A stretch of DNA of 64,000 nucleotides from assembly GCA_947452995.1 (NCBI GenBank), contig CANGEV010000012.1, forward strand, positions 4,848-68,847. The letters are read 5' to 3'. Made by a program: the position numbers and the translations under genes. Positions 7,428 through 53,100 of the stretch are shown here, piece after piece; position 1 is the first letter of the stretch; every line of letters begins with the position of its first letter. The notes beneath the pieces were generated by a model. The model had not been told where the DNA came from and searched no databases. It saw only the letters and a program-made list of their open reading frames with translations. This DNA comes from Chitinophagales bacterium. Its GTDB lineage: Bacteria > Bacteroidota > Bacteroidia > Chitinophagales > CAIODY01.

Positions 7428-7460
7428 GCCCATACCTATAAATTGCATATATTCAGTTGC

Positions 7461-11874: not shown

Positions 11875-11909
11875 AACAGGGTTTTGGTTCTTTTTCGTTA
11901 GCCAGGTCC

Positions 11910-33563: not shown

Positions 33564-34373
33564 TGTTGCAATCATTTCATAGGTTGCAAATGCTTCGCGC
33601 GCAGTACCGCCATAAACATTTAAATTATAATAGCGAGCGTAATCCGCTTTATTAGTAAACTCCAAATAAAGCTTGTGATAGAAGCTTGCGCGAATACCGA
33701 ACTCCGCACCAGTATTCCATCCACCAAATTGAAATTGAGTTTTGTTATGTCGACCGAATAATTCGTTTTCTACATGCGGCACCAAAGGGCCAAACCCTAA
33801 TCTTGCAATGGCGTCAATACGTATCGGTGCGGTTGGACACGTATACCAATTCCAACGTTTCACCACATTGAACAGGAAGAAGTTTGCCCCGTTATTCAAA
33901 AAATAATAATTCCCCGTTTTACGTTGCCAAAGCACGAGAGAGTCGGTATATCGACCATTTAAAGTACCTTGAACGCGCACCATTTGACTATCAGCGATGA
34001 CATGTTTGGTATGATCGAAATTAAGTTCGACGCCCCACCCTTTCTTTTCATTAATCCAATAGCCTACTCGATAATTATATTGTGGAATGGTCAAGGCCAT
34101 TTTAAAAATAGACTTCTCATTCCATCCTGGATGATCATGCGCTTGAACAGCTAAATATGTATAATCGTTGTTAAGATCAGGCTGCACGACATGTATATCG
34201 GGACGAGTATACCATTCTTTGTTATATCCCCAAGCAAACCACACTTTATCATGGGTTAACCATTTAGGGTTATTTGTTTCTTTGGTTGTTTCTGAAGTAC
34301 TATAACTTGCTTTTGCAGCAACAGCAATTGAAATATTAAGAATAATAAACAAGAAAAGTATTCCTTTTTTCAT
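33546..34373 (-). CDS. putative outer-membrane beta-barrel protein, function unknown
   Basis: Signal peptide (ISIAVAAKA), alternating aromatic-rich strands, and a C-terminal ...TLGLLF. It overlaps the PAP2 gene's 3' end by 18 nt (convergent). Confidence 0.55.
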   Translation of the reverse strand: MKKGILFLFIILNISIAVAAKASYSTSETTKETNNPKWLTHDKVWFAWGYNKEWYTRPDIHVVQPDLNNDYTYLAVQAHDHPGWNEKSIFKMALTIPQYNYRVGYWINEKKGWGVELNFDHTKHVIADSQMVRVQGTLNGRYTDSLVLWQRKTGNYYFLNNGANFFLFNVVKRWNWYTCPTAPIRIDAIARLGFGPLVPHVENELFGRHNKTQFQFGGWNTGAEFGIRASFYHKLYLEFTNKADYARYYNLNVYGGTAREAFATYEMIATLGLLF

Positions 34374-35742: not shown

Positions 35743-36351
35743 TCATTTGCGCAAAACAGCTCTAAGTACCTGCCCCACCCCGTTATGATAAAGTCCTTCA
35801 CTTAGCTCTATTTCCACTACTTCCAAATAAATAAACTCAAAACCTTTACACCAATTCAATAGCTCCTCCTTGCTATACAACATGGCCTCCTCCTTTGGGC
35901 CTCCTATACGTGGATTCTTCAAATTATAAGCTAAATGCCCCTTAGCAAAAGCTTCTAAAATTATTATTCCTCCAGTTTTTAAAAGCGGTAACATAGTCTT
36001 GAACATTGGCTCTTTTAATGCAGCAGGAAAATGACTATAGCTAAATGCAATCACATCAAATTGACCTTCATGATATGGCAAGTACATTCCATCATTCACA
36101 TAATAATCGATCGTAACACCGCATTCGTTTGCCAACTGAATAGCCTTTCTCCTACCCTCCGTACTTATGTCAAAAGCAAAAACATCCCATCCTAAACCGG
36201 CTGCAAAAACAGCATTTCGTCCCTCTCCTTCGGCAGGAAAGAGAATTTTTCCAGGCTCTAATTTCAATAATTCCTGTTTAATAAATGCATTAGGTTCTTT
36301 GCCATATGCAAACCCTTCTTGCGCATAGCGTTCATCCCACATATTTTTCAT
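35743..36351 (-). CDS. class I SAM-dependent methyltransferase (small-molecule type)
   Basis: 202 aa with motif I (LFPAEGEGRNAVFAA) followed by an acidic loop (VFAFDIS). Confidence 0.75.
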   Translation of the reverse strand: MKNMWDERYAQEGFAYGKEPNAFIKQELLKLEPGKILFPAEGEGRNAVFAAGLGWDVFAFDISTEGRRKAIQLANECGVTIDYYVNDGMYLPYHEGQFDVIAFSYSHFPAALKEPMFKTMLPLLKTGGIIILEAFAKGHLAYNLKNPRIGGPKEEAMLYSKEELLNWCKGFEFIYLEVVEIELSEGLYHNGVGQVLRAVLRK

Positions 36352-36569: not shown

Positions 36570-37298
36570 TTAAGCATTCTTCATAAAATAGGCATCCATT
36601 TGAAGAAAACTGCCATCCTTTAAATTTTGAGAAACATTTTCAACACCTGCCAAATGAAAATCGTGCTTTTTCATAAAACTATACAAATCATCAAACAACC
36701 ACTGCCCTTTATAAAGTTCTACAAAACTAGTTTCAATAAAAACAACCTTAACTTTAGATAGTGTCTGCTCAGCCCCTTTCAGTACCAAGGCTTCTGCACC
36801 TTGAACATCCAATTTTAATAAAATATTTCCTTCCAATCCCAGAGAATCAAATACAGCATCCAGGGTATCTGCCTTGACTTTTATCGCTGTATTTTTAGCC
36901 GTATGTGGATATGCTTCAGCGTGCGTCTTAGACATAGTAAGTATTGAACTACTTCCACTATTAGAGCTTTCATTGAATTCAAGCTCACCACTTTTATCGC
37001 TTAAAACGAAATTATAGGCTTTGTGGTTTAGATCATTTTTAAAGCGTTCCGTAAGTTTATGATAAGACTTTGGTAATGGTTCAAAACTTGCAATTTTTGC
37101 AGCTGGATAAATCTTACGCGCCTTGGAAGAATAGCCTCCTGTACTTGCACCGATATCAATAATCGAAGCTATATCCAATTTTTGCAACCAAATACTATTC
37201 ACCTTTGAAAGTCGCTCCTCATATTGATCGCGATCCTTAATCACTAAGCCAAAACGATTTAAAATCTTATTAGCAAGTTTAACGATACCTAAACCCAT
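36570..37298 (-). CDS. FkbM-family methyltransferase
   Basis: 242 aa with the SAM motif IIDIGASTGGYS and family-typical architecture. Confidence 0.7.
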   Translation of the reverse strand: MGLGIVKLANKILNRFGLVIKDRDQYEERLSKVNSIWLQKLDIASIIDIGASTGGYSSKARKIYPAAKIASFEPLPKSYHKLTERFKNDLNHKAYNFVLSDKSGELEFNESSNSGSSSILTMSKTHAEAYPHTAKNTAIKVKADTLDAVFDSLGLEGNILLKLDVQGAEALVLKGAEQTLSKVKVVFIETSFVELYKGQWLFDDLYSFMKKHDFHLAGVENVSQNLKDGSFLQMDAYFMKNA

Positions 37299-37350: not shown

Positions 37351-39972
37351 TCACTCAGAATACCTTTCCTGCGTCAATGGCAAATCTCGACAAGACTCAC
37401 CAACATTTATTCTGTAATGAACTTTAGAGTCGGGATTTAAACTTTTAAAACATGTTGCTTTACTTACACGCATCTCAACCTTCGTCTTCGCAAAAGCAGC
37501 CAGTTCCACCTTAGAAAAAGCAACCAATTGCAAAACAGGATGAACAATTCCATTGCCACTTGGCTCATCTAATAAACTCAAATACACTTGAGGCGTTGCA
37601 GCACCTTTTTGACCAGAATTAGCGATGGTGAACTGCACATTTATAAATGAGTCGAGCTCTTGTACCACCAAATCACTATACTCGTATTTAGCATAAGAAA
37701 GCCCATATCCAAAGGGAAATAAAGGCAAACCCGTCCCATCAATATAATCATCTCCACGACCCGTAGCTTCGTGCAAATAACTTAAGGGCAATTGTCCTTC
37801 ATTCAATGGAAATGTTATAGGCAACTTTCCAGATGGAGACACATCGCCAGCTAAAATCTGCGCTAAAGCATTACCGCCCTGTTCGCCAGGATACCACATG
37901 TCAATAACTGCATCTACACTGTCTATCCATCTGTCCATTCGAATAGCACTACCGCCTGTAAGTACTACAATTAAAGGCTTATTCAAACGAGATAAACGTT
38001 TTATCAATTCCTCTTGCCGACCCGGTAATGACAAACTAGAACGATCTCGAAATTCTCCTTCTTCAATGCCAGGACAATAAACAATCACATCCGATTTGCT
38101 AGCAACATGAATAGACTCGATTATAGTATTTGATTCATTTTTATCACATTGATAATCCCAAATCAATTTGAGCTGTGCATTTCCTACCGTCTCGCGATAC
38201 TCAATCTTTATCAGCACTAAATCACCTTTCTTCAATTGCAATACTTTATAATCCCTATGATAAGTCAGTTTTTCCCAACGATCAGCAATCAGGGTATTAG
38301 CTATATAAAATCGATATCCGTCATTTCCTTCTACACCAATTTTGTATTCACCATCTTCTGGAATAAGAACCATTCCCTCATAACGAACAGAAAAATGTTC
38401 TTTTTGAATCCATGCAGGCGCACTAAAAGTATAATGAAAATTTATACTTTTTTCCATTTGCTTCTTGATAGGTTCGCCAGATAAGTCGGTCGTATTGAAA
38501 TAGCATGCCGAAAGTTGACATATCGATTGGCAATTTGCACATGCTGATTCAATTACTTTAAATTCAACAGGCATACGCGCAACTCCTTTATGAAAGGAAA
38601 TCGAAGCCGCACTAAATCTATTTTTTAAGCCTTCTAGATAGGTAATCTTTTCAAATCCTGCTCCAGAATAACCTCCCAATCTGCTCTCTATCGCATCTTG
38701 ACCCACAACACAAACACGCTTAATATCGTTTCTAAGTGGCAACACTTTATTTTTATTACGTAATAAAACAGCACTTTTTAGACTAGCCTCCAACGCTAAT
38801 AACTGCTCTTCCCTTCTTTCTTGTTCCTGATCAAGCAGAACATACGGATCATCAAATAATCCCAACTCAAACTTCGCTTTAAGTACCCGTGCAACAGCCG
38901 CATCGATGGCTACAGGATTGACAGCTCCTTTCAAAAAATACGGATTAAATAAAGTATCATGTGTGATGGAAGTTTGAAAGATAACATCCAATCCATTTTC
39001 AATGGCCACTTTGCCTGACATTGGATAGGAGGCTGAAGTATTATGCAACACATTTGCTCCGCCAACAGCACCTGCGTCGGAGATGACAAAACCCGTAAAG
39101 CCCCACTCTTTTTTTAAAATGCGTTTTAACAAATCATCATTCATGCTACAAGGCTTCCCGTTCAATGAATTATAACTAGTCATTATAGAACGCGCACCAC
39201 CTCGCTGAATGGCTTGTTTAAAGGGTTCCAGGAAGATGTTTTTCATATAATCTTCATCAAGATGAATCGGATAAGAATCTCGACCTCCTTCACCTACGTT
39301 AACAGCAAAATGTTTTGGTGTAGTAATGACATTTTTTTGTTCAAAGGCTTTTACAAAGGCTACAGCCATTTCACTAGTTAAGTACGGATCTTCACCGTAC
39401 GTTTCCTCCACCCTGCCCCATCTTACGTCAGAAGCGATATTAATCACGGGTGATAATACCTGCCGGTAGCCGCTTTTGTACGCATCCTTTGCTATAGCAG
39501 TGGCAACACGACGCATTAAAGCAGTATCGAAGGAAGCGGCGAGGGCAATAGATTGTGGAAAAACAATATCATTCGTACCCACCACACCATGTAGTGCTTC
39601 GCCAAAAAAAATAGCAGGAATACCTAGGCGTGTATTGTTCACCAAAAAATGTTGAATGCGGTTCATCTCCTTGATAAGAACATCTCTCGTAACAAGCTTA
39701 TTCTCCATCATCTGTTGATTCCCATTTGATCCTAAACTCGTCGTATTTATCTCTAGACCAAATATACCTGTATTATACTTTGTCGAATCAAATACCCCAT
39801 CATGCGCAATCATAAACAACTGACGAAATTTTTCTTCCGGAGTCATGCGCTTTAATAAATCTGCAACACGTTCTTCTATTGATAAGGAAGGATTTTTATA
39901 CGGGAAGACGGATTGCGCAAATGCACCAACTGACGTCAAGAAAAATATAAAACTGAACAGGTAATTTTGCAT
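37351..39972 (-). CDS. glycoside hydrolase family 3 (beta-glucosidase-like) with inserted PA14 domain
   Basis: 873 aa with a signal peptide. It has a GH3 N-domain, the nucleophile motif GFVISDAGAV, and a PA14-like insert (FSVRYEGMVLIPEDGEYKIGVEGNDGYRFYI). A C-terminal Fn3-like domain follows. Confidence 0.85.
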   Translation of the reverse strand: MQNYLFSFIFFLTSVGAFAQSVFPYKNPSLSIEERVADLLKRMTPEEKFRQLFMIAHDGVFDSTKYNTGIFGLEINTTSLGSNGNQQMMENKLVTRDVLIKEMNRIQHFLVNNTRLGIPAIFFGEALHGVVGTNDIVFPQSIALAASFDTALMRRVATAIAKDAYKSGYRQVLSPVINIASDVRWGRVEETYGEDPYLTSEMAVAFVKAFEQKNVITTPKHFAVNVGEGGRDSYPIHLDEDYMKNIFLEPFKQAIQRGGARSIMTSYNSLNGKPCSMNDDLLKRILKKEWGFTGFVISDAGAVGGANVLHNTSASYPMSGKVAIENGLDVIFQTSITHDTLFNPYFLKGAVNPVAIDAAVARVLKAKFELGLFDDPYVLLDQEQERREEQLLALEASLKSAVLLRNKNKVLPLRNDIKRVCVVGQDAIESRLGGYSGAGFEKITYLEGLKNRFSAASISFHKGVARMPVEFKVIESACANCQSICQLSACYFNTTDLSGEPIKKQMEKSINFHYTFSAPAWIQKEHFSVRYEGMVLIPEDGEYKIGVEGNDGYRFYIANTLIADRWEKLTYHRDYKVLQLKKGDLVLIKIEYRETVGNAQLKLIWDYQCDKNESNTIIESIHVASKSDVIVYCPGIEEGEFRDRSSLSLPGRQEELIKRLSRLNKPLIVVLTGGSAIRMDRWIDSVDAVIDMWYPGEQGGNALAQILAGDVSPSGKLPITFPLNEGQLPLSYLHEATGRGDDYIDGTGLPLFPFGYGLSYAKYEYSDLVVQELDSFINVQFTIANSGQKGAATPQVYLSLLDEPSGNGIVHPVLQLVAFSKVELAAFAKTKVEMRVSKATCFKSLNPDSKVHYRINVGESCRDLPLTQERYSE

Positions 39973-40012
39973 AAGCTAAGATTCGGAATAATAAAAATAC
40001 TATGTTTATACT

Positions 40013-41413
40013 ATGAACAAACTAAGTCTATTACTTTTTTCTATCGCACTACTAACGCTTAAAAGTCTTTTTGCGCAAGAACAAGTTTATATCGCACCTA
40101 CAGACAGTCTTGTCAAAATAAATCTAAAGCAATGGCAAGGTTATAAGTTTGGATTATTGATGCACTGGGGTACCTATAGCCAATGGGGAATTGTGGAGAG
40201 TTGGAGCTTATGTCCAGAAGACGAAGATTGGTGTCAGCGTAAAGGTCCTTACGCAAGCGACTATTTTGAGTACAAGAAAAAGTATGAAGATCTGCAACAT
40301 AGTTTCAACCCGACACACTTCAATCCGGAAAAATGGGCTTCGGCAGCAGCTTATGCTGGAATGAAATACATTGTTTTTACCACAAAACATCACGATGGAT
40401 TTTGCATGTTCGATACGAAATTGACAGACTACAAAATAACGTCATCACAATGCGCTTTTTCAACTAATCCGAAAGCAAATATTGCAGACGAAGTATTCAA
40501 AGCATTTCGTAAAAAGAACTTCAAAATAGGGGCTTATTTTTCGAAGCCGGATTGGCACTGTGAAAACTATTGGTCGCCGTACTTTCCTCCTTTAGATCGT
40601 AATCCAAACTATGCTATAAAGAAGCACCCTGAATGGTGGAAAAATTATAAAAAATATACACAAGGACAGATTGATGAATTACTTTCAAACTACGGCCGGA
40701 TAGACATCTTATGGCTCGATGGTGGATGGGTTCGCCCGGATAGCCTCGATCATTATAAATCAGCGAAAATCAAAAACAATCAAGACATCGATATGGACGC
40801 AATTGCGACAAATGCTATTGCAAAACAACCTGGTATTATTGTGGTCGACCGTGATGTGCCAAGTAAAAATCAAAATTACTTGACACCTGAACAAAAGCTC
40901 CCAGATACCTTACTACCGTATCCATGGGAGACCTGCATGACCATGGCTACCTCTTGGAGTTGGGTACCGAGTGATACGTATAAAAGTTCCACCGAGCTCA
41001 TTCAGACACTCTGTAAAATTGTTAGTCGTGGTGGTAATTTCCTATTGAATGTAGCGCCGAATGCCGAAGGAGAACTTGATTCGATTGCTTATGTGCGATT
41101 GAAAGAAATTGGCGATTGGATGCGAATTAACGGAGACGCGATTTATGAGACAGAACCAATTTTTCCGTATTCCTATCACAACATGGTTTTTACTAAAAAG
41201 AAGAGTCACATTTATCTGATAGTACTACAAACATCGGACTCTGCTGTTATCCCAACAGAAATTAATATCCCTAACTTCAAGTGCAAAATTAAAGCAGCTC
41301 ACCTTTTAGGAGAGAATAAATTACATCTTAAAATAAGTGATACTAAACTTATTATCGACAAAGCAAGTACGCTTAAATCTTCTCCTGCCTTTGTAATTCA
41401 GTTGGATCTGTAA
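40013..41413 (+). CDS. alpha-L-fucosidase (GH29)
   Basis: 466 aa with a signal peptide. GH29 motifs TTKHHDGFCMFDT and DILWLDGGW. Confidence 0.85.
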   Translation: MNKLSLLLFSIALLTLKSLFAQEQVYIAPTDSLVKINLKQWQGYKFGLLMHWGTYSQWGIVESWSLCPEDEDWCQRKGPYASDYFEYKKKYEDLQHSFNPTHFNPEKWASAAAYAGMKYIVFTTKHHDGFCMFDTKLTDYKITSSQCAFSTNPKANIADEVFKAFRKKNFKIGAYFSKPDWHCENYWSPYFPPLDRNPNYAIKKHPEWWKNYKKYTQGQIDELLSNYGRIDILWLDGGWVRPDSLDHYKSAKIKNNQDIDMDAIATNAIAKQPGIIVVDRDVPSKNQNYLTPEQKLPDTLLPYPWETCMTMATSWSWVPSDTYKSSTELIQTLCKIVSRGGNFLLNVAPNAEGELDSIAYVRLKEIGDWMRINGDAIYETEPIFPYSYHNMVFTKKKSHIYLIVLQTSDSAVIPTEINIPNFKCKIKAAHLLGENKLHLKISDTKLIIDKASTLKSSPAFVIQLDL

Positions 41414-42591
41414 ATCAAATATAGATTCACAATATTAAATAGAAGCCCAAACCATTTCCAGTAATTTGGAGTAGCTTGGTCTAACTTTTTATCATCTATA
41501 AAAATTAATAAAAGTCCAAAAAATGCTGCAGGATAACGCATTTGAACCGAAATTAAATTAAGGGAAGCAAATGCCATCATGCAAATAATTCCTAATACAG
41601 CAAGCGATTTAATACTTGACCTTTCACGTAGATTCGTATAAATAAAGAAAATCGCATAAGCACTGGTGAACGCTAAAAATAGATGATAAATAAAATAAAT
41701 AAATTCAATGCGGCTATCAAATTGAAGATCCGCAATTAAAGTACCTTGCAAGAGATATAATATTAAAAATAATAAAAGTACGAGCAACCATTGCCTCTCG
41801 ATGCTCACAATCATTTTACGGACCTCGCCAACTAATAAAAAATAACTTACAATAAACCATTGTAGAACATATTCAAAGCTCGACCAGTTAAGTGTTCCCA
41901 GTTTTAACACCTTTGAATTTGCAGGTGCGAGTCCCTTCCAAACAGTGAATACAAAAAGAGGGAATGGTACTATCAATACAAACAAAAGGAGTAATTCAAG
42001 CAATGTAATTCTACGTTGTAATAAAGCAAGTATAGGCCACGTAAAAACGACTAGTAATAAATTTTGCTTTCCCACGATTGTCAAGGCCCCTAGTAAAGCG
42101 ATAAGTACCAAAAATAGAAGTCGGCGCCAAACACTTTCAATATGTGTTAAATATTCAAGGCCCACTAAAAATAAGACGCACGTTAATATCGGAGGGAAAT
42201 CACCCATGGCTCTTCCAAAAAGCGCAAATGTTCCAGGAATAAATACAACAGAAAATATTTCGAAAGGATTCGTGCGCTTAAGTAAAAACTTAAAAAGTAG
42301 ATAAACACTTAACACAAATAAACTAACATTCACCCAACGTAAATAGAGAATATTAACCCTTAATGAACTTGGCAATAAGAAATAAAACCAAGAGCTTACT
42401 ATTCCAGCAGTGCCATGATAATTTTTAATAAAAGCAATAGTCCAAGGTGAGCCTTTCCATTCTAGATTTGAAAAATAAATACTTTCATCGGCAATAGGCA
42501 GCCTTGGAGAAAAGGCAACTAACAAACATAAGCTACCTAATAGTAACAGTGAAAAATATTCGTAGTTGAAAGTTAAAAATCTATTTTTCAT
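41398..42591 (-). CDS. polytopic membrane protein, GT-C-like (putative lipid-linked-sugar-dependent glycosyltransferase)
   Basis: About 397 aa from the ATG at 42591, which lies 5 nt after the upstream stop. It has roughly 11 hydrophobic helices. The first extracytoplasmic loop carries PIADESIYFS, a D-E-x-x-Y pattern reminiscent of ArnT/PMT-type GT-C enzymes. Confidence 0.45.
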   Translation of the reverse strand: MKNRFLTFNYEYFSLLLLGSLCLLVAFSPRLPIADESIYFSNLEWKGSPWTIAFIKNYHGTAGIVSSWFYFLLPSSLRVNILYLRWVNVSLFVLSVYLLFKFLLKRTNPFEIFSVVFIPGTFALFGRAMGDFPPILTCVLFLVGLEYLTHIESVWRRLLFLVLIALLGALTIVGKQNLLLVVFTWPILALLQRRITLLELLLLFVLIVPFPLFVFTVWKGLAPANSKVLKLGTLNWSSFEYVLQWFIVSYFLLVGEVRKMIVSIERQWLLVLLLFLILYLLQGTLIADLQFDSRIEFIYFIYHLFLAFTSAYAIFFIYTNLRERSSIKSLAVLGIICMMAFASLNLISVQMRYPAAFFGLLLIFIDDKKLDQATPNYWKWFGLLFNIVNLYLIYRSN

Positions 42592-43633
42592 TTGGATTCG
42601 GTACAAAAGTTCGATGAATACCACTTACCGAAACGCGTGAATGACGTCCGCCACTAATTAGATGAATGGTATCGTCAATCACACCACTAATAATACCATG
42701 ACGTGCCTCTGGCAAGATCCCAATTTTAGACCAACTATCATTTCGCGGATCATAACAATCGACTTCATTCGAACACGACCAAACAAACTCGCCACCAAAA
42801 ACATAAATTTTATTCTTAAAGACGACAGAGGAAAGTCCTCCACGCGCAGATGGCAGAGAGGCAGCCGAAGTCCATTCCTTACTATCTAAATTATATTTTT
42901 CAACAGAAATTAAAGTCTTGCGAAGATCATCTTGCCTTCCACTTATTAGATAAAGACAACGATTGACAATTTCTAAACGATGATGATCACGAGGTATCTG
43001 AAAAGATTTTAAACACAACCACTTATTCGACTTAATAACGTAAGCCCATAAATTCGACTGCACTTTTAAGTCTTGACCAATTCCTCCGGCATAATAAATA
43101 GTGTCATTTAAGATTGCGACCGCACCAGCACCGCGAACTTCTGGCAAATTAGCTAAGCGCGTCCAGCTATGTGTAATAGGATTAAAGGAGAAGAGCGTAT
43201 TTTGAGGTGTATAACGTGCAATATTAACGCCTCTATAACGTAAGCCTAATGGTCCAAAACCTCCGACAACAAAAACTAAGCTATCGTTACTTACAACTCC
43301 TGCATGATTTAAAGGTGCGGGCAAATCTACTTGTTGAATCCAGACCTTTCTAACCGCGTCATACATCCACATATCGCTGTATGTTCGCATCAGATAATCT
43401 AGTCCGCCTAAGACATAAAATTTTTGTTTACAAACAGCGCCGCTAGCTTCAGTCCGATGTACTGGCAATTCCGCCGCTAGATCAAAAGATCCTGCAGAAG
43501 AATATACTTTTTTTTCAAGAGGAATGATGGACATGGAAAGGTTCCACCAACAAAAAAATGCAATCAGTCCTAAAATTAATGCGAATGAAAATAGAAGTAT
43601 AATACGAAGATTACGAATAATAAATTTAAACAC
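42581..43633 (-). CDS. membrane-anchored Kelch-repeat beta-propeller protein
   Basis: 350 aa with an N-terminal TM (IILLFSFALILGLIAFFCWW) after a basic N-terminus. About six Kelch blades follow (repeated ...YVLGG/VVGG/YAGG/VFGG...W motifs). Confidence 0.75.
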   Translation of the reverse strand: MFKFIIRNLRIILLFSFALILGLIAFFCWWNLSMSIIPLEKKVYSSAGSFDLAAELPVHRTEASGAVCKQKFYVLGGLDYLMRTYSDMWMYDAVRKVWIQQVDLPAPLNHAGVVSNDSLVFVVGGFGPLGLRYRGVNIARYTPQNTLFSFNPITHSWTRLANLPEVRGAGAVAILNDTIYYAGGIGQDLKVQSNLWAYVIKSNKWLCLKSFQIPRDHHRLEIVNRCLYLISGRQDDLRKTLISVEKYNLDSKEWTSAASLPSARGGLSSVVFKNKIYVFGGEFVWSCSNEVDCYDPRNDSWSKIGILPEARHGIISGVIDDTIHLISGGRHSRVSVSGIHRTFVPNPNEK

Positions 43634-44915
43634 TATGTAGTATATTAGATAAGACAGCGGCCTGATTCTTACGAGAATATTGCTTATAATCTGTCGCCGT
43701 TGAGTGTACGCAAGCGTTTTGCTTGAACTCCAAGTAGGCTATCTCCAAAGCTTCACAAATCTCCGATGCATTATTACAATTGAAACCAGCGTTAGTTTCT
43801 TTCATAATCCGTTCCAAATCGCTGTGATCATTAACTGAAACAATCACTCTACGATTTAATGCTAGATACTCATAAATTTTTGCAGGTAACAATCTATTAT
43901 CGGGATTCGTCAACACCAACAACAAATTACTCTCAGCTAATTTCGTAAAGAGCTCAAATTTACTAATTCGCGGTGTAGTATTTATATATGCATTAATATT
44001 TTTATCAAATGTAAAAATTCGTTCAACCTGCTCCGGTTGATATTCAATTCCTAGAAAACTTAATTGAACATTTGCATTCGGTATTTTAGCAATGAACATT
44101 GAAAAGCCTTTTAAAAAATCTTCTAAGCGATGGTAGGGATAAATCGTACCAGCAAAGGCTATTCTGAACACATCAGATTTCTGTTTAACATTTTCAACGA
44201 GTGCAATTTCTTCTTCAATATAGCCATTGAATACTGTCTCTGTTTGAATCGTAGAAACTAATTCCTTTAATTTAACTTGTTCAAAGGGGTTAGACGTTAT
44301 CACTATGCGTGCAGCGCGTAAGTACTTTTTTTCAAAATACCGAAACCAAAAATTATTAAGAAGTTTATTCAGACCACTAGTTCGTAAGTTATCATCCTTA
44401 CTTGTCCATCCATCTCGATAATCTAACAAATAAGGAATAGCATATTTCTTAGCTAATAAACGCGCATACTTAAAAAGAATAAAGGGCTCTCCTGAAGATA
44501 AAATAGCATCAACTTTATTCGTCTTCATATATTCATTGGCAGCCTGGTAGAGGCTCCACTTATTATCAAAAAAAGAAAACGGATAAGACAATACCATTCC
44601 TAAAAAAGAGAGCGCCTTCCTTAATATGGAGAAGCGTGTGTTGCCATATTTTAGCAATAGGCGGTCACGCAAATTACTATTATAAGGAACTCGAATAATT
44701 GTTGCACCAGCGGTTTCTTCGTAGGTGATAGATTGAGCTGCTGAACTCACCACATAATCTAATGGCGAGTTTTGTATATTATCCCAATGTCGGGTAACAA
44801 TGATAGGATGGACATCATAAGCCGGCAAATACTTAAACCAACTATACGGACGGAACGCTCCTACTGAATTGTAAGGAGGAAAATCATGCGCGAAAATCAA
44901 TACACGTTTTTTCAT
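43626..44915 (-). CDS. glycosyltransferase (GT-B fold, GT4-like)
   Basis: 429 aa with the N-terminus MKKRVLIFAHDFPPYNSVG and a C-terminal LPAKIYEYLALNRRVIV (E-x7-E-like) region. Confidence 0.7.
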   Translation of the reverse strand: MKKRVLIFAHDFPPYNSVGAFRPYSWFKYLPAYDVHPIIVTRHWDNIQNSPLDYVVSSAAQSITYEETAGATIIRVPYNSNLRDRLLLKYGNTRFSILRKALSFLGMVLSYPFSFFDNKWSLYQAANEYMKTNKVDAILSSGEPFILFKYARLLAKKYAIPYLLDYRDGWTSKDDNLRTSGLNKLLNNFWFRYFEKKYLRAARIVITSNPFEQVKLKELVSTIQTETVFNGYIEEEIALVENVKQKSDVFRIAFAGTIYPYHRLEDFLKGFSMFIAKIPNANVQLSFLGIEYQPEQVERIFTFDKNINAYINTTPRISKFELFTKLAESNLLLVLTNPDNRLLPAKIYEYLALNRRVIVSVNDHSDLERIMKETNAGFNCNNASEICEALEIAYLEFKQNACVHSTATDYKQYSRKNQAAVLSNILHSV

Positions 44916-46093
44916 GAATGTAGATCCGCTTCGATTTTAATATATAGGTCAACTAACTTCTTCCTTTCCGCATTCCAGTTAATCTCTTGCTTTGCGGCGA
45001 TAGCACGTGCTTTGAAATTTTGATAATCCGCAAGTATTTCATTCATTCCTTGTAAGTAGGCTCCGCGTTCATCCGGATTCACACATACACCATTCTTGTA
45101 ATGATTCAATATATTCATGTACTCTGGTTGTTGCGTAGCGAGTACCGGAATTTCTGCAATGGTATATTCAAATAATTTATTGTCTAAAGCATACCAGTAG
45201 GACAAATTTGTTTTGTTCCAAGTTGGAACAAGACCAATATCAGCTCCTGAAAGGTACGATGTGATTTCGGCGGGTTTTACTGCAGGATGAAAATGTACAT
45301 TTCGAATTTTATTAGCATTCACATAATCTTGAACATCCTGACAACCTTTATCGAATGAGGTGATATACAAAAGATGTAAGCCTTCTTTATTTCCAATTTC
45401 ATCAATAACCTGCTCGTGATTGTGTGTTCGAGCATAAATATGTGCTCCGATAAATACCAATAGTTTATCGGATGCAGGAATATTATACATCGATTTTAAA
45501 TCAACAGAATTTTTAATTTCTTCCAATTCAGGCGCATTGCGTATTATAACAGGCTTTTCCTTGGCGCGAAAATAATCAAAAAGGATATCCGACAATGATT
45601 GATTCACCGTCAAAAGATAATCGGCTAAACGACCATTACGTTTCTCTCGCAAGACTTGATACTTACGTACGATGTACGACTTTATCAAAATACTCAATGG
45701 CAAACCTTTTAGATTATTCAATGGCCATGCATGAAACAACTCATGCGAGTCATAGACAAAAACCTTCGAAGGATCATGTTTTTTTATCCAAGCGCCTGCA
45801 TCACACATGAATTGATCGTGACAATGAAAAACTTGATAATCTTCACGAGCAATTTTCAAGGCGATTTCACGAATTTCCTTCTCCGCTGAAAATTTAGCAA
45901 TATGATTGGGGAACACGCGCTTAACCTGAAAACCGTCGATTACCTCTTCATTGGGTAATGACTTCTCTTTTACGCAATAAATACAAACCGAATGACCAGC
46001 TTGCGTCAGTTCCTTTGCTTCCCGATGTACACGACGATCGTTCGTGAATGGGTTATCTAAAAGCATGGCTATTTTCATGCCTAAAATTATCAA
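44912..46093 (-). CDS. glycosyltransferase (GT-B fold, GT4-like)
   Basis: 393 aa; the alternative start at 46078 gives MKIAMLLDNPFTNDRRV. The C-terminal motif is NKLFEYTIAEIPVLAT. Its stop overlaps the next start (ATGA at 44912-44915). Confidence 0.7.
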   Translation of the reverse strand: MIILGMKIAMLLDNPFTNDRRVHREAKELTQAGHSVCIYCVKEKSLPNEEVIDGFQVKRVFPNHIAKFSAEKEIREIALKIAREDYQVFHCHDQFMCDAGAWIKKHDPSKVFVYDSHELFHAWPLNNLKGLPLSILIKSYIVRKYQVLREKRNGRLADYLLTVNQSLSDILFDYFRAKEKPVIIRNAPELEEIKNSVDLKSMYNIPASDKLLVFIGAHIYARTHNHEQVIDEIGNKEGLHLLYITSFDKGCQDVQDYVNANKIRNVHFHPAVKPAEITSYLSGADIGLVPTWNKTNLSYWYALDNKLFEYTIAEIPVLATQQPEYMNILNHYKNGVCVNPDERGAYLQGMNEILADYQNFKARAIAAKQEINWNAERKKLVDLYIKIEADLHS

Positions 46094-46131
46094 AAAAGAC
46101 GCAAAAAGAATGATATTCTGTAGCTTTAATC

Positions 46132-46767
46132 ATGAAAATTGAAATTTGGAGCGACATCGCCTGTCCTTTCTGTTATATCGGTAAACGCCGTTTAGAACAA
46201 GCACTAGAAGCTAGTCCTGAAATTCTCCACCCAAATATTATTTATAAAAGTTATCAATTAGCCCCACAGCTGCAAGTAACGGAGCCAACTTCACTAAACG
46301 AATACCTGGCCAAGGTAAAAGGTATTAGTATCGAACAGGCTAAAGAAATGAATGCGTACGTTAGCAATATGGCGACTGAAGTTGGATTACATTTCCATAT
46401 CGAGCAAGCTCAATTAGCAAATACCTTCAACGCACATCGATTTTTACATCTTGCGAAATCACTTCAATGCCAATTGAAGGCCAAAGAACTTCTGTTACAA
46501 GCATATTTTTGCGAAGGAAAAAATGTCGATCAGCTGGAAACATTTGTTAATATCGGAGAAAAACTAAACATCCCCCATTCTACAATCACGGATTATTGGC
46601 ATTCGAAAAATTTCGAAGAAGATGTTCGCCTTGATATGTATGAAGCACAGCAGTATCAAATCACTGGTGTTCCACTGTTTTTATTTAATGAACGAATTGC
46701 TGTATCTGGCGCGCAACCCCTCGATGTCTTCCTACGAGCACTAAAGCGTGCTAACGAATTATCGTGA
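46132..46767 (+). CDS. DsbA-family (FrnE-like) thiol:disulfide oxidoreductase
   Basis: 211 aa with no signal peptide and the N-terminal motif IEIWSDIACPFCYIGKRRLE. Confidence 0.8.
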   Translation: MKIEIWSDIACPFCYIGKRRLEQALEASPEILHPNIIYKSYQLAPQLQVTEPTSLNEYLAKVKGISIEQAKEMNAYVSNMATEVGLHFHIEQAQLANTFNAHRFLHLAKSLQCQLKAKELLLQAYFCEGKNVDQLETFVNIGEKLNIPHSTITDYWHSKNFEEDVRLDMYEAQQYQITGVPLFLFNERIAVSGAQPLDVFLRALKRANELS

Positions 46768-49700
46768 AATCACCTTTTAAAAATCGGTCCGACGTATCTA
46801 ATCCAAAGCGATAGATGATCATATACATATAGCTTCCAATCTCTTGATCTTGACCATTAAAACGCCCATCCCAAGGAGCATTTGCGTCTGTCGTGAAATA
46901 AACACGTTGCCCCCAACGATTATATAACTCCATGCGATATTGAATTAAATTCGCAGCATTTGAAAAGATCGGACCAAATGTATCATCCAATCCATCACCA
47001 TTCGGACTAAACGCATTCGGCAACATCATCCATCCCTCACATAAATTTATCACCATCATTGCATCATGTGCTTCGCAGCCGTAATTATTCATTACGCTCA
47101 CACTATAAGTACCCGATGAATGCACCGCGTAATTCTGCCCCGTGCTTCCGTCCTGCCATATAATTTGCTGAAAAGCAGGTACAGATAAGGTTACAGGTGT
47201 TTCATCCAAACACAACTCACGATCTGGACCGAGAGATACGCTTATTAAACCTACCACTGGCACAAATATCGAAGCGGTATCCGTACATCCTGCTGCATCT
47301 TGCACCCCAACTGAATACCATGCTTCACCCGTTAATCCCCTATTACTATTCGTTCCTAATCCACCTGGCGTCCAAAAATAATTATAGGGCCCATTTCCAC
47401 TTAATACCTGCACCTCCACTTTTCCTCGTCCTTGCGCACAAGTGTCAGGTCCCATTGCTAACGCTATTTGAGCATCTACAGACGCTGCAATATTAAATGT
47501 ATCCTTAACATTACAATTCTTCGCATCCGTCAAGCTCATAATATAATTTCCAGGCGACAAACTATTAAGTATAGCACTAGTACTCAAGGCTGGATTCCAA
47601 ACAAAGCTATAAGCAGGCGTACCTCCATTTGCAATCACTTGTATACTTCCATTATTCTTCGCACAACTGGTCGATTTAACAGTTGAAGTATATTGTAAAG
47701 CACTTGGCTGTGTTATCGTAACACTAGCTTGCTTAACACAATTACCGGCATCTATCACATTGAAGACATAGGTACCAGCTTGTACATTGATTAAATTCAA
47801 ATTATTTGAAACGGAAGGATTCCAAGTATACGTATATGGCGTGAAGCCTCCACTAATCGCCGCTGTCACGGAGCCGTTACTTCCACCAAAGCATGAAATA
47901 TTTTGTTGATTGCTAAACGCAATAGCAAGCGTATTATTGATTGCAGGGACAGTGACCTGCACGCTATCCTTGCAGCCAACAGCATCTATTACAATGACCT
48001 TATAAACGCCTGCAGCAAGTCCACTTGCCACTGCCTGTGTACTTACAACCGGGTTCCAATTGAAACTATATGGACTGGCGCCTCCACTTATATTTAATGA
48101 AATCTTACCCGTATGATTAGCACAGGTATCAGCCTTCACTGTAAAACTAATCGTAGGTCCACTAGAACTTAAAATCTTTGCAGTATCTAAGATCGTACAG
48201 CCCTTCGTATCACTGAGTGTTAAAATATAATTGCCGGGAGATAGATTCGATGCTGTATTTGTAGAAGAAACAGCAGGGTTCCAAGAATAGGTATAGGTTG
48301 GTGTCCCGCCATTAGCTGTCCAGCTGATGCTACCATTATTTTTTCCGCAAGTAGTTGTTTGAATAGTAGGACTTAAAGCTAAAGCCGCTGGCTGCGTCAA
48401 GGTATAGGTGGCATTCGCCACACAATTATGTGCATCGGCAACCGATACGCTATAACTTCCAACACCTAAATTAGAGGGGTTTGAGCCACTTAAGGTATTT
48501 GGCGACCAGGTGTAGGTATAAGGTGTTTGGCCACCACTCGCACTTAAACTGATACTTCCATTTGTTGCGCCATAACATGTAGGATTGCTTGTATTATTTG
48601 CGATGCTAATGGTATTGATAATATTCGGAACATATAATGAAAATGTATCTATACAACCAAAGGTATCTACTACAGATATATGATAAAACCCAGAAGCAAT
48701 ATTCGTTACAAAATTACAATTCGTCACATTCGGCAGCCAATTATACGTATAGAATGGCGTACCTCCGCTCATCACAAAGCTCAACGCACCATTGGAATTA
48801 TTGCAGTAGGCAGCAGTTATTTGCGTGGTATGACTGAATGCTTGCGGTGCTTTAATGTGTACGGTATCGCTTATACTACAGGTCCCCGCTTGCGAAACAG
48901 TAACAATGTAAGTACCTACACCTAAATTTTTAATGGTATCCGTATTTTGCGTAGGACTAGTATTCCACAAAATAGATGGAGAAACAGTATTTCCAGTGAT
49001 ATGTACCATCGCCCAAGCATCATGACCGCCCGGACAAGTTACATTCATAGAATCAATACCCGTCCCTAAAACAGCGATTTGTTTAATGACCGTATCACTA
49101 CCGCTACAAGGATTCGTTGCGATTAGTTGAACATAATAAACTCCCGGCGCACTGAACTTATGCGTAGGATTTTGAAGACTCGAAACATTGGAAGTACCAG
49201 TACTAGGATCACCAAAATTCCAAGACCAATTGTTCGGACAATTAGTAGACGCATCGGTAAATGCAAAGTTAGCTTTCGGAGAACACAACCAAGAAAAGTT
49301 TGCCACATACTTTGGCGCATTCATGATGTAAATATCATCTATAGCTATCCCATCAAAGGCATTACAAGTAGTTCCTGCGCCGAAGGTAAATCGAAAAATT
49401 ACATTTGGCTGACCTGCTAAATTACTCATGCAATGCTTTGCCACCACCCAAGCGCCTGAGCCAAAACCACCCGTACAAGGACTCGTTGCCGATTGCAAAG
49501 TACCCGACCAGCCATCGCGCGTTGTTGCTAATGTGGTGAGATAATTAATCGGCGTATAGTTGTACCAATTTGCAGTATAGCAATCAACCGGATCATTATA
49601 CGCTCCGACATTCGTCCATGAGGTCCCATTATTCAAGGAATATTGCAGGTTACCACCATCATATTTTCGTTCGGACGACCAATAAATTTTAAATTCAATA

Positions 49701-50017
49701 TAGGGATGAGCGAGGTTCGTGAAATCGAAACAAGGGCTTTGTAGCCAAGAGCGTTCGCCATTGGTATAGGCAGTACCCGTAAGTCCACCCGTAACCCAAC
49801 ATTTTAACCCTTGTCCGGCTACAGTAATTACAGACTTGCTAGGCGAACCCCAAGCCCAGGATGTACCTGTTCCGCCTGTTGTCCAGGCAGGTAATGTTTC
49901 AAAAGTTTGATGATATGGATAGGCCGTGACACATTGTGCTTGTACAGGATTTCTGTTCACCCAAAAGGCAAAACATAAGATTCCCCACAATACATGCCAA
50001 AGGGCCTGCTTTTTCAT
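46751..50017 (-). CDS. T9SS type B C-terminal-domain protein with MAM/LamG-like N-domain, PKD domain and about 8 SprB-type repeats
   Basis: Signal peptide. PKD motif WNFGDPSTGTSN..NPTHKFSAPGVYYVQL. Repeated units contain GG(T/Q)(P)(Y/F)(T/S)Y.W.P. The C-terminus reads PNAFSPNGDGLDDTFGP...LKGDFTIIR, the gliding-motility-associated CTD (type B) signature. Confidence 0.85.
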   Translation of the reverse strand: MKKQALWHVLWGILCFAFWVNRNPVQAQCVTAYPYHQTFETLPAWTTGGTGTSWAWGSPSKSVITVAGQGLKCWVTGGLTGTAYTNGERSWLQSPCFDFTNLAHPYIEFKIYWSSERKYDGGNLQYSLNNGTSWTNVGAYNDPVDCYTANWYNYTPINYLTTLATTRDGWSGTLQSATSPCTGGFGSGAWVVAKHCMSNLAGQPNVIFRFTFGAGTTCNAFDGIAIDDIYIMNAPKYVANFSWLCSPKANFAFTDASTNCPNNWSWNFGDPSTGTSNVSSLQNPTHKFSAPGVYYVQLIATNPCSGSDTVIKQIAVLGTGIDSMNVTCPGGHDAWAMVHITGNTVSPSILWNTSPTQNTDTIKNLGVGTYIVTVSQAGTCSISDTVHIKAPQAFSHTTQITAAYCNNSNGALSFVMSGGTPFYTYNWLPNVTNCNFVTNIASGFYHISVVDTFGCIDTFSLYVPNIINTISIANNTSNPTCYGATNGSISLSASGGQTPYTYTWSPNTLSGSNPSNLGVGSYSVSVADAHNCVANATYTLTQPAALALSPTIQTTTCGKNNGSISWTANGGTPTYTYSWNPAVSSTNTASNLSPGNYILTLSDTKGCTILDTAKILSSSGPTISFTVKADTCANHTGKISLNISGGASPYSFNWNPVVSTQAVASGLAAGVYKVIVIDAVGCKDSVQVTVPAINNTLAIAFSNQQNISCFGGSNGSVTAAISGGFTPYTYTWNPSVSNNLNLINVQAGTYVFNVIDAGNCVKQASVTITQPSALQYTSTVKSTSCAKNNGSIQVIANGGTPAYSFVWNPALSTSAILNSLSPGNYIMSLTDAKNCNVKDTFNIAASVDAQIALAMGPDTCAQGRGKVEVQVLSGNGPYNYFWTPGGLGTNSNRGLTGEAWYSVGVQDAAGCTDTASIFVPVVGLISVSLGPDRELCLDETPVTLSVPAFQQIIWQDGSTGQNYAVHSSGTYSVSVMNNYGCEAHDAMMVINLCEGWMMLPNAFSPNGDGLDDTFGPIFSNAANLIQYRMELYNRWGQRVYFTTDANAPWDGRFNGQDQEIGSYMYMIIYRFGLDTSDRFLKGDFTIIR

Positions 50018-50144: not shown

Positions 50145-53100
50145 TTAGTGCTGTATTTCAACAAGTTGATTACTGATAATACTCGCATCCTTTAAAATAA
50201 CCACGCGATAGGTACCAGCCTGCATGTTTGAAACAGGAATATTTAATTGCTCAATCCCTTGCACAAATTCTTTCACCATGACTAATTGATTTAAGCTATT
50301 ATAGATTTCACAATACATACCAGCGACGTTAGGACTGTTGTAACGAAGCATTAAATTATCGTGAGCAGGATTTGGATATAAGCTAAATGAATTCTTCACC
50401 GCAGTTTTCAATGCCATTATTGAAGAATAAACAGGCAATTCAAAGTTTGAATTTGATACAGCCTTTATTCGATAATAATTCAAGCCTGCAAAAGGAGAGC
50501 TATGCAAATACGAAAACTCAACTTGTCCTTTTTTAATTTGGCTCGACTCTATTCTTGCAATTTTAACAAAGTGAATTCCATCCGCAGAATGTTCGATTTC
50601 GAATTCACGATTCTCAGTGTACATACTCATTTTCCAATTAATTGCTATACCGCTCTTCTGTGCAACAGCAATGTTAGAAATAAATTGAATAGGCAATACA
50701 GAAGCATTAGAGATAATAATGGAAGAGGTTGCAACTGCTCTACAGCCGTATACATCTGTCATAGTATACATTACCGCAAAGGTGTCCACCGTACTTCCTG
50801 TTAAAGTGATATTACCGCTCAGAGAGTCGATCAGTAAACCAGGATCTGCACTGAATATACCACCACTAAATCCATTAACCGTTGCATAGGCTGTTCCATG
50901 TGCGGGATAAGGACTACCCACATAACTAACGGTAGCCGTTGGTAAAGCATTCACAGTGATAGTCGCTGTTTGTACTGCAGACATATCGACACCTGCATGT
51001 ACCGTATCTCCATTATCTTTAATATAGATACTTAAGTTAGCTACGCCGCTTTTTCCTGTAGCTAGTGCAAATGCTAAGTTTCCTGAAGCATCAATACTAG
51101 GCTGCGTAGAGAATAAAGAATTATTATCATTTGTTACAATGAACGTAAGCGTTTGCGTTGATTCATTACTTGGTCCTGTGGACATCCCTGAAGCCCATCC
51201 ATTCACAATATTAACTCCACTATTTTCGCAAACGGATAGATTAGTTCCCTTGCTAAAAGTAGGCGCATCGTTTACCGGTAAAATTGTCAAATAAATAGTC
51301 CCAACATTAGACGTTAAGGTATCAAAATCTTTTACAGTATAGGTCATACTTACTGCGCCATAAAAATTAGCCGTCGGTGTAAAAGTTACATAACCAGGAT
51401 AATTTGTAGGACTGGTAATGCTCCAAGTACCATTTGCAGTCACTAGTGTTCCAGTTAAAGCCAAAGTGCTCGGGTCAATCATATTATTATCGACGTCATT
51501 TGAAGTAACATCAAACGAAATAACATTATCCTCATAACCTGTTCGGTTATCATCATTCGCAGTAGGTGTACCTAGCGGTAAGATGGTTATATCAATATGG
51601 GTCATTGAAGATGTAGCACCACTCTTATCATTCACCGTATAATGAACTTGCGTTAGTGGTCCAACTGGAGTCGAGAAAGTATAAGTAAAAGTTACATTGC
51701 CATAAATATCTACAGTATAGGTTCCTTCCCCAGCAACAGTATAGCTAGTTTGCTGCCCTGCAGTATAAGGATCCAAATCAACAGATGTTGAATCGATTGC
51801 ATCGTCCATATCTGAATCATTTGTCAATACATTAAACGTGACAGAAGCAACAGATGCAGTAGCGGTAGTACTACGAGCATCGCTCACGGTCGTTGGAGGA
51901 TCATTTACTGGAATCACAGTAACGATAATTAAACCACTATCCGAAACTAATCCGAGATTATCCTTAATCGTATAGGATTTAGGTGTTGCAGTGCCATTAT
52001 AGTTTGCTACTGGCGTGAAGGTAACTACACCCAAAGCGTTCACAGTATACGTGCCTTGTCCACTCACCGTATAGGTTGTTTGAATACCTGCAGTTAATGG
52101 GTCTAAATCTACTTTACTAGAATCTACATACCCATCATAATCATAATCATTCAAAACAATAGTATAGGTCACAGGGACATCTTCATTCGTAGTTAGGGCA
52201 TCATCAATGGCGAATGGAGCTGAGTTCACCCAATTTACCACAACGGTAATATTGGCGATGTTTGAAACTAAACCAAGTACATCTTTAACAGTATAAGGGA
52301 TTGTTACTGTACCATAATAATACGGATCAGGTGTGAACGTAACGTTGCCTAACATATCCACATAAAACTGTCCTTGACCAGGCGCATAATAAGCCCCTTG
52401 AATACCTGTTGAATTCGGATCTAAATCAACACGCGCCACGTTAATCGCATTCGTACCATAATCATTATTAGTTACAGAGAAGGTAACGCTCACATTTTCA
52501 TTTGTACTTGCATTATCATTTACAGCGGTTGGTGCTCCGGCAGGAACTACTGTCACATCAATGGTAGTTACATTTGATGTCAATGACACACTATTATCTA
52601 CTGTATAATACAATGTTGTAACATTTCCATAGAAAGTGGAAACCGGTGTAAATGTAAGGGTTGCGCCACTTAAGGTAAATGTACCCTGACCTGTCAAGGT
52701 ATAGCTAGATTGGGTTCCAGCCGTATACGGATCTAAATCAATACTACTATTCACAAGCGTACCATCCACATTAATATCATTCGACAACAAACTAATATTC
52801 ACTGCAGTATTTTGCGTTGTCGAAGCGGTATTTGCAATCGCGACAGGCGGTGCATTTACATGCGTAACATTGATAGTTACAGTACCGGCTATAGTACCTA
52901 GGCTTGCATCATTGGCTTTAAAAGTAAAGGTCGTTAATGCATTACCATAAACGTTTACTGGAGGATCATATGTCAAGTACACAATATCAGAAGCTAGAAT
53001 TGTTTGTCCAACCGTAACTGCAACACCATTTAAATAAAGGGTACCTTGACTAGGCAAAGTAGCGATTGTGATTGATTGCAATGCATCACTTTCAACATCT

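Follow-up and report, generated by a model that had tools for sequence, protein, structure and literature searches.

What might two cytoplasmic glycosyltransferases, a Kelch propeller, and a multi-pass membrane protein be doing together in four overlapping genes? The question is raised by a locus from a Chitinophagales bacterium (assembly GCA_947452995.1, contig CANGEV010000012.1), of which a stretch of 64,000 nucleotides was analyzed as a whole (referred to here as the window). The window also matches contig CANFWD010000011.1 of a metagenome-assembled genome, GCA_947450665.1. Four consecutive open reading frames (ORFs) on the minus strand, at 41398–46093, make up one real operon, and we call its genes, in order of transcription, GT1, GT2, Kelch, and Mem. 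The gene order, the overlaps, the domain and fold assignments, the conservation of one motif, and the links between neighboring genes in related genomes led us to a model that we hold with slightly better than even confidence: the two GT4-type enzymes would act with Mem, a GT-C glycosyltransferase that would use a polyprenyl-phosphate sugar, and with Kelch as its acceptor-binding partner. An earlier note made from the sequence alone had described the locus as a candidate periplasmic glycosylation module. The label is a reasonable one, because Mem is GT-C-like, Kelch is predicted to face the periplasm, and the operon has no Wzx, Wzy, ABC transporter, or chain-length gene next to it.

The genes are packed as tightly as the earlier note had read them. 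GT1 (44912–46078; 388 aa) begins in the public gene calls at an ATG at 46078, and a TTG at 46093 merely lengthens the ORF. GT2 (43626–44915; 429 aa), Kelch (42581–43633; 350 aa, with a GTG start), and Mem (41398–42591; 397 aa, with its ATG at 42591 in the public gene calls) follow on the same strand. Read directly from the sequence, the GT1/GT2 junction is an ATGA stop/start overlap of 4 nt (44912–44915) and the GT2/Kelch junction is an 8-nt overlap, GTGTTTAA (43626–43633), both as previously described. At the third junction, the 5-nt gap reported between the Kelch stop codon and the Mem ATG proved to be an 11-nt overlap, ATGAAAAATAG (42581–42591); those 5 nt are part of the overlap, flanked by the start and stop codons. 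The same junction is a 4-nt overlap in L008, a syntenic locus in a Chitinophagales metagenome-assembled genome. Upstream, a 53-nt divergent intergenic region (46079–46131) lies between GT1 and a DsbA-like gene and, from its position only, is presumed to be the promoter region. Scanning for promoters and terminators returned counts at chance with a sigma-70-type consensus, which does not cover Bacteroidota promoters. The four genes form a translationally coupled operon of two separable halves, GT1–GT2 and Kelch–Mem.

Relatives of Mem were found by an exhaustive HMMER search of 1.84 billion representative proteins, which yielded a family of 26 representatives, all of about 400 aa. A word-indexed search with either the Mem sequence or the family profile returned only the query and one relative; the hydrophobic query probably swamped the prefilter of the word index. 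A plasmid collection held no Mem homologs and only generic Kelch proteins (27–31% identity). In an alignment of 24 family members, the most conserved feature is a putative catalytic Asp-Glu motif, D35-E36-S-I-Y39 in Mem (42475–42489, minus strand), at the start of a 54-residue loop directly after the first transmembrane (TM) helix. E36 is invariant, at least 90% of the members have D35, and the family consensus is YDEPxYLxNV. This is the D-E-x-x-Y motif that had been pointed out in the first external loop. The other invariant residues are G63, R85, P119, G174, W218, R352, and Y353. Matches at E ≤ 1 to PMT_2 (PF13231), an ArnT/PMT-like GT-C family near CAZy GT83 and GT39, occur in 7 of the 24 relatives, the best with E 1.7e-7, and one relative carries the JGI label “ArnT-like”; Mem itself falls below the Pfam threshold for PMT_2, and the link to that family is at the superfamily level only.

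The predicted structure points in the same direction. An AlphaFold (AF2) model of Mem built on the family alignment has a predicted local distance difference test score (pLDDT) of 82.7, a predicted TM-score (pTM) of 0.85, and about 13 helices, within the 7–13 TM helices of the GT-C superfamily, and hydrophobic segments span the whole protein; the earlier description of a multi-pass protein stands, with the count of about 11 TM segments revised upward. When the model was compared with the PDB by Foldseek, 16 of the top 19 matches were GT-C enzymes, most with a probability of 0.85–1.0: ALG12, PglB, ALG3, STT3, AglB, ArnT, EmbA/B, Pmt4, ALG6, AftB, and Pmt1/2. Lysine and arginine residues in the short loops (12 on one side versus 4 on the other) favor the alternate side as cytoplasmic, which indicates an N-in topology. 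This topology puts all 14 residues that are invariant or nearly so on the face of the first loop (EL1), which would be periplasmic. Mem has no soluble periplasmic domain. The GT-C assignment rests on the agreement of fold, motif, and family matches, and on these grounds we take Mem to be a minimal GT-C glycosyltransferase from a family that lacks annotation, neither Wzy nor WaaL. The GT-C likeness proposed beforehand was thus upheld, and the polymerase or ligase outcome that would have spoken otherwise did not arise.

The partner encoded just upstream matches Kelch_1 in Pfam (E 6.9e-38, five scored repeats), and six GG...W blades can be read in its sequence. Residues 86–331 align with six-bladed Keap1, KLHL, and designed propellers in a search of PDB sequences. 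A single hydrophobic stretch, a signal-anchor helix at residues ~11–30 (43544–43603, minus strand), is preceded by K3, R7, and R10. Because of this basic N-terminus and single TM helix, the propeller should face the periplasm. This is the orientation that had been deduced on the same grounds, and both the scan for hydrophobic segments and the model helix agree with it: in a single-sequence model with an overall pLDDT of 37.8, the sole confident part is a helix at residues 2–35, with pLDDT above 90. The hydrophobic N-terminus is common to the orthologs in L008 and in Emticicia (L009). Orthologs of Kelch are 66% identical in L008 and the metagenome contigs L012 and L013 and 47% identical in Emticicia, and each adjoins a Mem homolog or lies one small gene away from it. 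Among NCBIfam models, NanM/YjhT and “cyclically-permuted mutarotase” match with E 1e-14 to 1e-15 and with 52–56 bits against cut-offs of 243–416. We rejected membership of Kelch in the NanM family, as the scores are four- to eight-fold under the cut-offs and reflect the Kelch repeats only.

The first half of the operon had been interpreted as two cytoplasmic GT4-like enzymes. For GT1 this is supported directly, with both GT-B halves above the Pfam thresholds (Glyco_transf_4, 43.8 bits with a cut-off of 28.5; Glyco_trans_1_4, 38.4 bits with a cut-off of 27) and no hydrophobic segments. GT2 alone gives sub-threshold matches to GT4 N-terminal domains in Pfam (15.8 and 15.1 bits, E 0.015), and the support comes through its homologs. 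It belongs to a large family of proteins of about 430 aa found across Bacteroidota (460 matches), many of which (35–72% identity) bear PF13439, PF13579, PF00534, or PF13692, and members are called glycosyltransferase in the source records. Searches of PDB sequences with GT1 and GT2 returned no matches.

How far the arrangement is conserved was assessed by comparing gene neighborhoods. A scan with a two-sequence alignment found one genome locus, L008, and the syntenic relatives are labeled Chitinophagales; a metagenome scan with the Kelch alignment found two true orthologous loci and, beyond these, only two unrelated Kelch proteins. L008, L012, and L013 carry an adhesin gene, DsbA, GT1 (84% identity), GT2 (72%), Kelch (66%), and Mem (40%) in the order seen in the window; Mem is directly followed by a methyltransferase gene and then by two hypothetical genes and PAP2. 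A sister lineage, L003 and L004, is equally syntenic through DsbA, GT1 (82%), and GT2 (72%), after which convergent fucosidase and GH3 genes follow at once. GT1 orthologs are 82–85% identical across all five of these loci. Mem is the most divergent member of the set, with 40% identity between the window (41398–42591) and L008 (7953–9155), where the co-linear neighbors reach 66–85%; the divergence is approximately uniform along the protein, with a minimum of 18% at residues 251–300. Type-specific GtrC enzymes are known to diverge fast, and the rapid divergence of Mem resembles that of such GtrC-like enzymes.

Beyond the close relatives, the contexts of the Mem family bear on its donor. In Emticicia sp. 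C21 (L009), a TM-anchored Kelch protein (47% identity) is followed by a 232-aa GT2-family enzyme and then by a Mem homolog (27%), with the genes overlapping. Across the window, L008/L012/L013, and Emticicia, Kelch and Mem are therefore neighbors that adjoin, overlap, or have nothing more than a small GT2-family gene between them. For the Emticicia GT2-family enzyme, PDB and NCBIfam searches gave as best matches ArnC, PgfS, dolichol-P-mannose synthase, and sll0501, a GtrB homolog, with PgfS the closest NCBIfam model; all four are polyprenyl-phosphate sugar synthases. A homolog of this enzyme (partial, at a contig end) accompanies a Mem homolog and a MatE transporter in L010; in L018, the Mem homolog lies between a full-length ArnC homolog (E 3e-37) and DegT/FdtA amino-sugar genes; and in the protein P0144, a GT2-family domain is fused to a Mem-like domain. 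The gene after the Mem homolog in L017 begins like a GDP-mannose dehydratase, and the contexts in L011, L016, L019, and Fontivita (L020) were uninformative. The commonest neighbor of the Mem family in the sampled loci is thus a polyprenyl-phosphate sugar synthase of the ArnC/GtrB type. In three-component periplasmic glycosylation as described by Kelly and colleagues (PMC11127046), a synthase and a MATE flippase operate with a GT-C enzyme, and MATE proteins and GtrB-type synthases partner GT-C side-chain transferases; the pattern of synthase, MATE, and GT-C among the Mem relatives fits this logic. By analogy with these relatives, the donor of Mem is most likely a polyprenyl-phosphate-linked sugar.

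A working model can be assembled from these pieces. GT1 and GT2, as soluble GT-B enzymes, would most likely draw on nucleotide sugars on the cytoplasmic side and make part of a glycoconjugate that is lipid-linked or membrane-associated. At the periplasmic face, Mem would take a sugar from its polyprenyl-phosphate-linked donor by means of Asp35-Glu36 and pass it to an exported acceptor, which could be a glycan, a glycolipid, or a protein. Kelch, held in the inner membrane by its one N-terminal helix, would place its six-bladed propeller in the periplasm beside Mem. There, it may act in trans as a separate acceptor-binding or gate-keeping subunit, the role played by carbohydrate-binding modules (CBMs), MIR domains, or other periplasmic domains in larger GT-C enzymes. 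The genes for the donor synthase, of the ArnC or GtrB type, and for the flippase would have to lie in another part of the genome. The same glycoconjugate probably owes its cytoplasmic part to the GT4 pair; the overlaps of 4, 8, and 11 nt and the gene order kept in L008/L012/L013 tie that pair to Kelch–Mem.

Several findings weigh against this model. Mem itself has no match in Pfam (E ≤ 0.1), NCBIfam, or PDB sequences, nor does its family profile match any PDB sequence, and the Foldseek statistics are modest, with a best E of 1.2e-3 and TM-scores of 0.3–0.46. Most of the Mem relatives examined (L010, L011, and L016–L020) have no Kelch neighbor. In the window, tblastn with the GT2-family proteins of L009 and L018 gave a best E of 0.2 and revealed no synthase, and Pfam annotation of the 64 kb found no flippase (GtrA, MatE, or SMR) and no initiating phosphoglycosyltransferase. 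The neighborhood comparison covers about 10 genomic contexts, and within them the operon comes apart: L003 and L004 keep the GT4 pair and lack both Kelch and Mem, while Emticicia has Kelch and Mem without the GT4 pair. The four genes are therefore no fixed unit, and the conserved core is Kelch plus the GT-C enzyme. Conservation of the four-gene set across Bacteroidota, which the earlier note had proposed to survey, is partial: the set recurs in only one other lineage (L008/L012/L013) and is split in the others. As the GT4 pair and Kelch–Mem each occur alone, a shared pathway is not required. Similarly, because the window has neither an ArnC/GtrB-type synthase nor a flippase, the locus cannot be self-sufficient. 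No ORF of at least 150 aa in the window matches Glycos_transf_2 in Pfam, and an EamA transporter gene lies 25 kb off (15286–16161). The Pfam annotation agrees with the earlier observation that no flippase, polymerase, or chain-length gene is adjacent.

This separability gives some weight to the view that the operon joins two modules with nothing in common but a transcript, with Kelch–Mem inserted or retained by chance downstream of the GT4 pair. The GT4 pair would then make a cytoplasmic or lipid-linked glycan that has no relation to the target of Kelch and Mem. In L003 and L004, GT1–GT2 directly abut the fucosidase gene, and in Emticicia the Kelch and Mem genes enclose a GT2-family gene without any GT4 pair. 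Distant GT2 homologs also occur in polysaccharide loci of the ordinary kind, where neither Kelch nor Mem is present, and GC content at third codon positions (GC3) is lower in Kelch and Mem (z −1.7 each) than in GT1 (z −0.6). However, the GT2 stop and the Kelch start overlap by 8 nt, a second lineage retains the order of the four genes at 40–84% protein identity, and co-translated bacterial genes usually share a pathway. We regard two unrelated modules as less likely than a shared pathway, though still a substantial alternative. It is also conceivable that Kelch is itself an enzyme, either a NanM-like sugar mutarotase or an oxidase like galactose oxidase or GlxA, acting on a periplasmic glycan. 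For example, GlxA of Streptomyces is a membrane-anchored Kelch-type oxidase whose gene lies beside that of the glycan synthase CslA. The three aligned Kelch orthologs have some His, Cys, and Tyr residues that do not vary, and the Emticicia ortholog gives the same weak NanM/YjhT and mutarotase matches. We nevertheless consider an enzymatic role unlikely. The NanM-type scores are far under their cut-offs, and the closest sequences in the PDB belong to generic Keap1-type propellers with six blades. A mutarotase would have no obvious substrate, since the anomeric carbon would be fixed in the lipid-linked step, and galactose oxidase and GlxA have seven blades and extra domains, whereas the Kelch protein consists of six blades alone.

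The remaining alternatives concern what Mem acts on and what kind of protein it is. The earlier note had named the cargo of the type IX secretion system (T9SS) encoded nearby as possible acceptors, and a module that O-glycosylates secreted proteins such as the neighboring T9SS adhesins, in the manner of PMT or of Pgf in S. mutans, would agree with the PMT_2 matches in Mem relatives and with Pmt1/2/4 among the fold matches. Large SprB/CHU_C and Por_Secre_tail proteins are encoded nearby, and the GT2-family partner in Emticicia is closest to PgfS, whose system glycosylates adhesins (PMC5856776). However, L003 has the adhesin genes just the same while lacking Kelch and Mem, and no adhesin gene lies beside the Emticicia module. 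In addition, the Mem family is very rare, and glycan or lipid acceptors of the ArnT, Emb, ALG, or Gtr type suit the fold equally. Protein O-glycosylation is consequently very unlikely in our view, and we rejected any specific tie to T9SS cargo, given that the adhesins persist where Kelch and Mem are missing. As for the protein itself, a Wzy polymerase or WaaL ligase of a conventional Wzx/Wzy pathway could likewise be a multi-pass protein of about 400 aa encoded beside GT4 genes, the usual position of Wzy, and one Mem relative matches EpsG (E 0.44). We rejected this possibility, whose chances appear very small: Mem matches neither Wzy_C nor the O-antigen ligase family in Pfam, WaaL (7tpg) appears at Foldseek rank 24 (probability 0.13, TM-score 0.19) behind 16 GT-C enzymes, the Asp-Glu pair after TM1 and the PMT_2 matches are GT-C features, and no Wzx is encoded nearby.

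The model of a GT4 pair, a GT-C transferase, and a Kelch partner has counterparts among known systems. Mem shares a GT-C transferase and an acidic motif in the first periplasmic loop with GtrA/GtrB/GtrC of Shigella and Salmonella, with ArnC/ArnT, and with the GT136 system of Citrobacter youngae (PMC11127046). The likeness extends to the gene contexts, as Mem relatives adjoin a synthase of the ArnC/GtrB/PgfS type in L009, L010, and L018, are represented by a GT2-family fusion in P0144, and adjoin a MATE protein in L010, as in GT136. By contrast, the window has no GtrB/ArnC synthase, GtrA, or MATE; two GT4-type enzymes and Kelch are co-translated with the GT-C enzyme instead. Mem also has no periplasmic domain or CBM and falls below the threshold of every Pfam GT-C family. 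In GT136, the CBM binds the O-antigen acceptor, and Emb and AftD carry CBMs as well (PMC11127046). Separate propellers have been described in mycobacteria, where Pmt is predicted to have a periplasmic β-propeller over its DE-motif active site and a propeller partner of AftB has been noted (bioRxiv 10.64898/2026.07.15.738315). The pairs Pmt/ML0810c and AftB/ML1720 homolog thus have in common with Mem and Kelch a DE-motif GT-C enzyme and a separately encoded periplasmic β-propeller, proposed to sit above the catalytic center and to control acceptor access. They belong to another phylum and have an eight-bladed propeller rather than a six-bladed Kelch; here, the genes are adjacent or overlapping, and it is from this linkage that we infer an interaction.

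The combination of GT4 enzymes with a small GT-C enzyme also has precedents. In mycobacteria (PimA/PimB' and then PimE) and in eukaryotes (Alg2/Alg11 and then ALG3/9/12), two cytoplasmic GT4 Leloir enzymes act before a small GT-C enzyme extends the flipped lipid-linked glycan. As in those pathways, the operon holds a GT4 pair and a small GT-C enzyme without a large soluble domain, and the best fold matches of Mem include ALG12 and ALG3. There is, however, no orthology at the sequence level, the Pim and Alg genes do not form one operon, and they have no known Kelch partner. In the Pgf system of S. mutans (PgfS, PgfM1, PgfE, and PgfM2), a GtrB-like synthase and GT-C-type membrane proteins glycosylate surface adhesins (PMC5856776). 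It resembles the present case in that the Emticicia GT2-family partner is closest to the NCBIfam model for PgfS. It differs in coming from a Gram-positive bacterium, in using an epimerase and two GT-C proteins, and in having no Kelch protein or GT4 pair. The sialic acid mutarotase NanM/YjhT is likewise a periplasmic six-bladed Kelch propeller of similar size, but it is soluble, whereas the Kelch protein here is membrane-anchored, and no sialic acid genes are found nearby.

While GT4 enzymes, Kelch propellers, GT-C enzymes, and three-component periplasmic glycosylation are all of known kinds, three elements of this locus are new. The GT-C family is rare and unannotated, with members labeled “hypothetical protein” in the source records; its linkage to a membrane-anchored Kelch propeller recurs in two orders of Bacteroidota; and in the operon, both are united with two GT4 enzymes in place of an ArnC-like synthase. 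Searches of the literature for Kelch together with GT-C, undecaprenyl, or polyprenyl yielded no account of a pairing of Kelch and GT-C. GT-C enzymes do most extracytoplasmic glycosylation, including the modification of lipopolysaccharide, the addition of O-antigen side chains, the synthesis of cell-wall arabinan, and protein N-, O-, and C-glycosylation, and how minimal GT-C enzymes choose their acceptors is poorly understood. The linkage of Kelch to a GT-C enzyme parallels the recent mycobacterial evidence for separate propeller partners. In its boldest form, the model would make Kelch an obligatory, separate acceptor-selecting subunit of a minimal GT-C enzyme, with the ArnC-type synthase replaced, in this Chitinophagales lineage, by a GT4 pair that builds the lipid-linked substrate; the pathway might act on surface proteins, for example the adjacent T9SS adhesins. 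We consider that version quite unlikely; if true, it would be the first two-subunit GT-C of such a kind outside Actinobacteria and a periplasmic glycosylation pathway of new architecture. Emticicia sp. C21, a cultured isolate, carries a compact triad of Kelch, an ArnC-like GT2-family enzyme, and GT-C, which opens the idea to direct genetics and to modeling of the complex. The gain would be an annotation rule for a family of “hypothetical proteins” and, possibly, knowledge of a new way in which environmental Bacteroidota modify their surface glycans.

Base composition had been taken to mark the locus as compositionally foreign, and here our results differ. The two 60-nt lines that had been sampled do have 25% and 30% GC, but they are unrepresentative. 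The operon as a whole has 36.2% GC rather than about 25–30%, sucC has 41.5%, and the adhesin genes have 40–42% rather than about 45%. Because the operon differs by about 3 points from the 64-kb window (39.5%), the strong claim of a compositional island was dropped. Per-gene GC z-scores are −0.4 for Kelch, −1.0 for GT1, −1.9 for GT2, and −2.9 for Mem, which at 33.2% GC is the sole outlier. Its low GC is expected because the protein is rich in Leu, Ile, and Phe. The accessory status of Kelch and Mem is better shown by their pattern of presence and absence than by GC.

Close relatives also differ in the surroundings of the operon. Mem and the fucosidase gene are convergent and overlap by 16 nt (41398–41413), and genes for an α-L-fucosidase and a GH3/PA14 protein (37351–41413) separate Mem from two minus-strand S-adenosylmethionine (SAM)-dependent methyltransferase genes downstream (35743–36351 and 36570–37298; Methyltransf_25, or MT25, and FkbM-type Methyltransf_21, or MT21). 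The fucosidase and GH3 genes are missing in L008 and L013 (L008, 9156–9410), in which MT25 comes directly after Mem, and they are present in L003 (9288–13359), without Kelch or Mem. Because the distributions of fucosidase/GH3 and of Kelch/Mem differ in this way between L008/L013 and L003, the region around Mem and the fucosidase gene underwent at least two gain or loss events. MT21 was found in the window only. Since MT25 lies directly downstream of Mem in L008 and L013, the ancestral glycan locus may have held a methyltransferase. Two conserved hypothetical proteins without Pfam matches are encoded further along the minus strand (33546–34373 and 34451–35677). One, u275, resembles an outer-membrane β-barrel protein in its signal peptide and C-terminal aromatic residue, and the other, u408, is soluble; both are conserved at 65–88% identity in all three syntenic lineages. 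They are followed by a convergent PAP2 phosphatase gene (32931–33563), whose family includes lipid A and undecaprenyl-pyrophosphate phosphatases.

On the other side of the operon, two very large adhesin-like genes lie directly upstream on the minus strand and are syntenic in L003 and L008. By domain annotation, the first encodes a protein of 1088 aa with PKD, SprB, and CHU_C domains (46751–50017) and the second a protein of 2318 aa with cadherin, Big_9, and PKD domains (50145–57101). Elsewhere in the window, a plus-strand gene (7443–9548) encodes a proprotein-convertase P-domain together with a CotH kinase domain and adjoins genes for two Por_Secre_tail (T9SS) proteins (4528–6525 and 6647–7378). 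A 652-aa ORF on the plus strand (19162–21120) has no Pfam match, and a 1158-aa DUF4175 protein is encoded on the minus strand (21870–25346). Downstream of the Mem homolog in L018, eight short gene calls (9745–13236), all DUF4331 and ending in a Por_Secre_tail protein, look like a fragmented or frameshifted gene for a large T9SS cargo protein.

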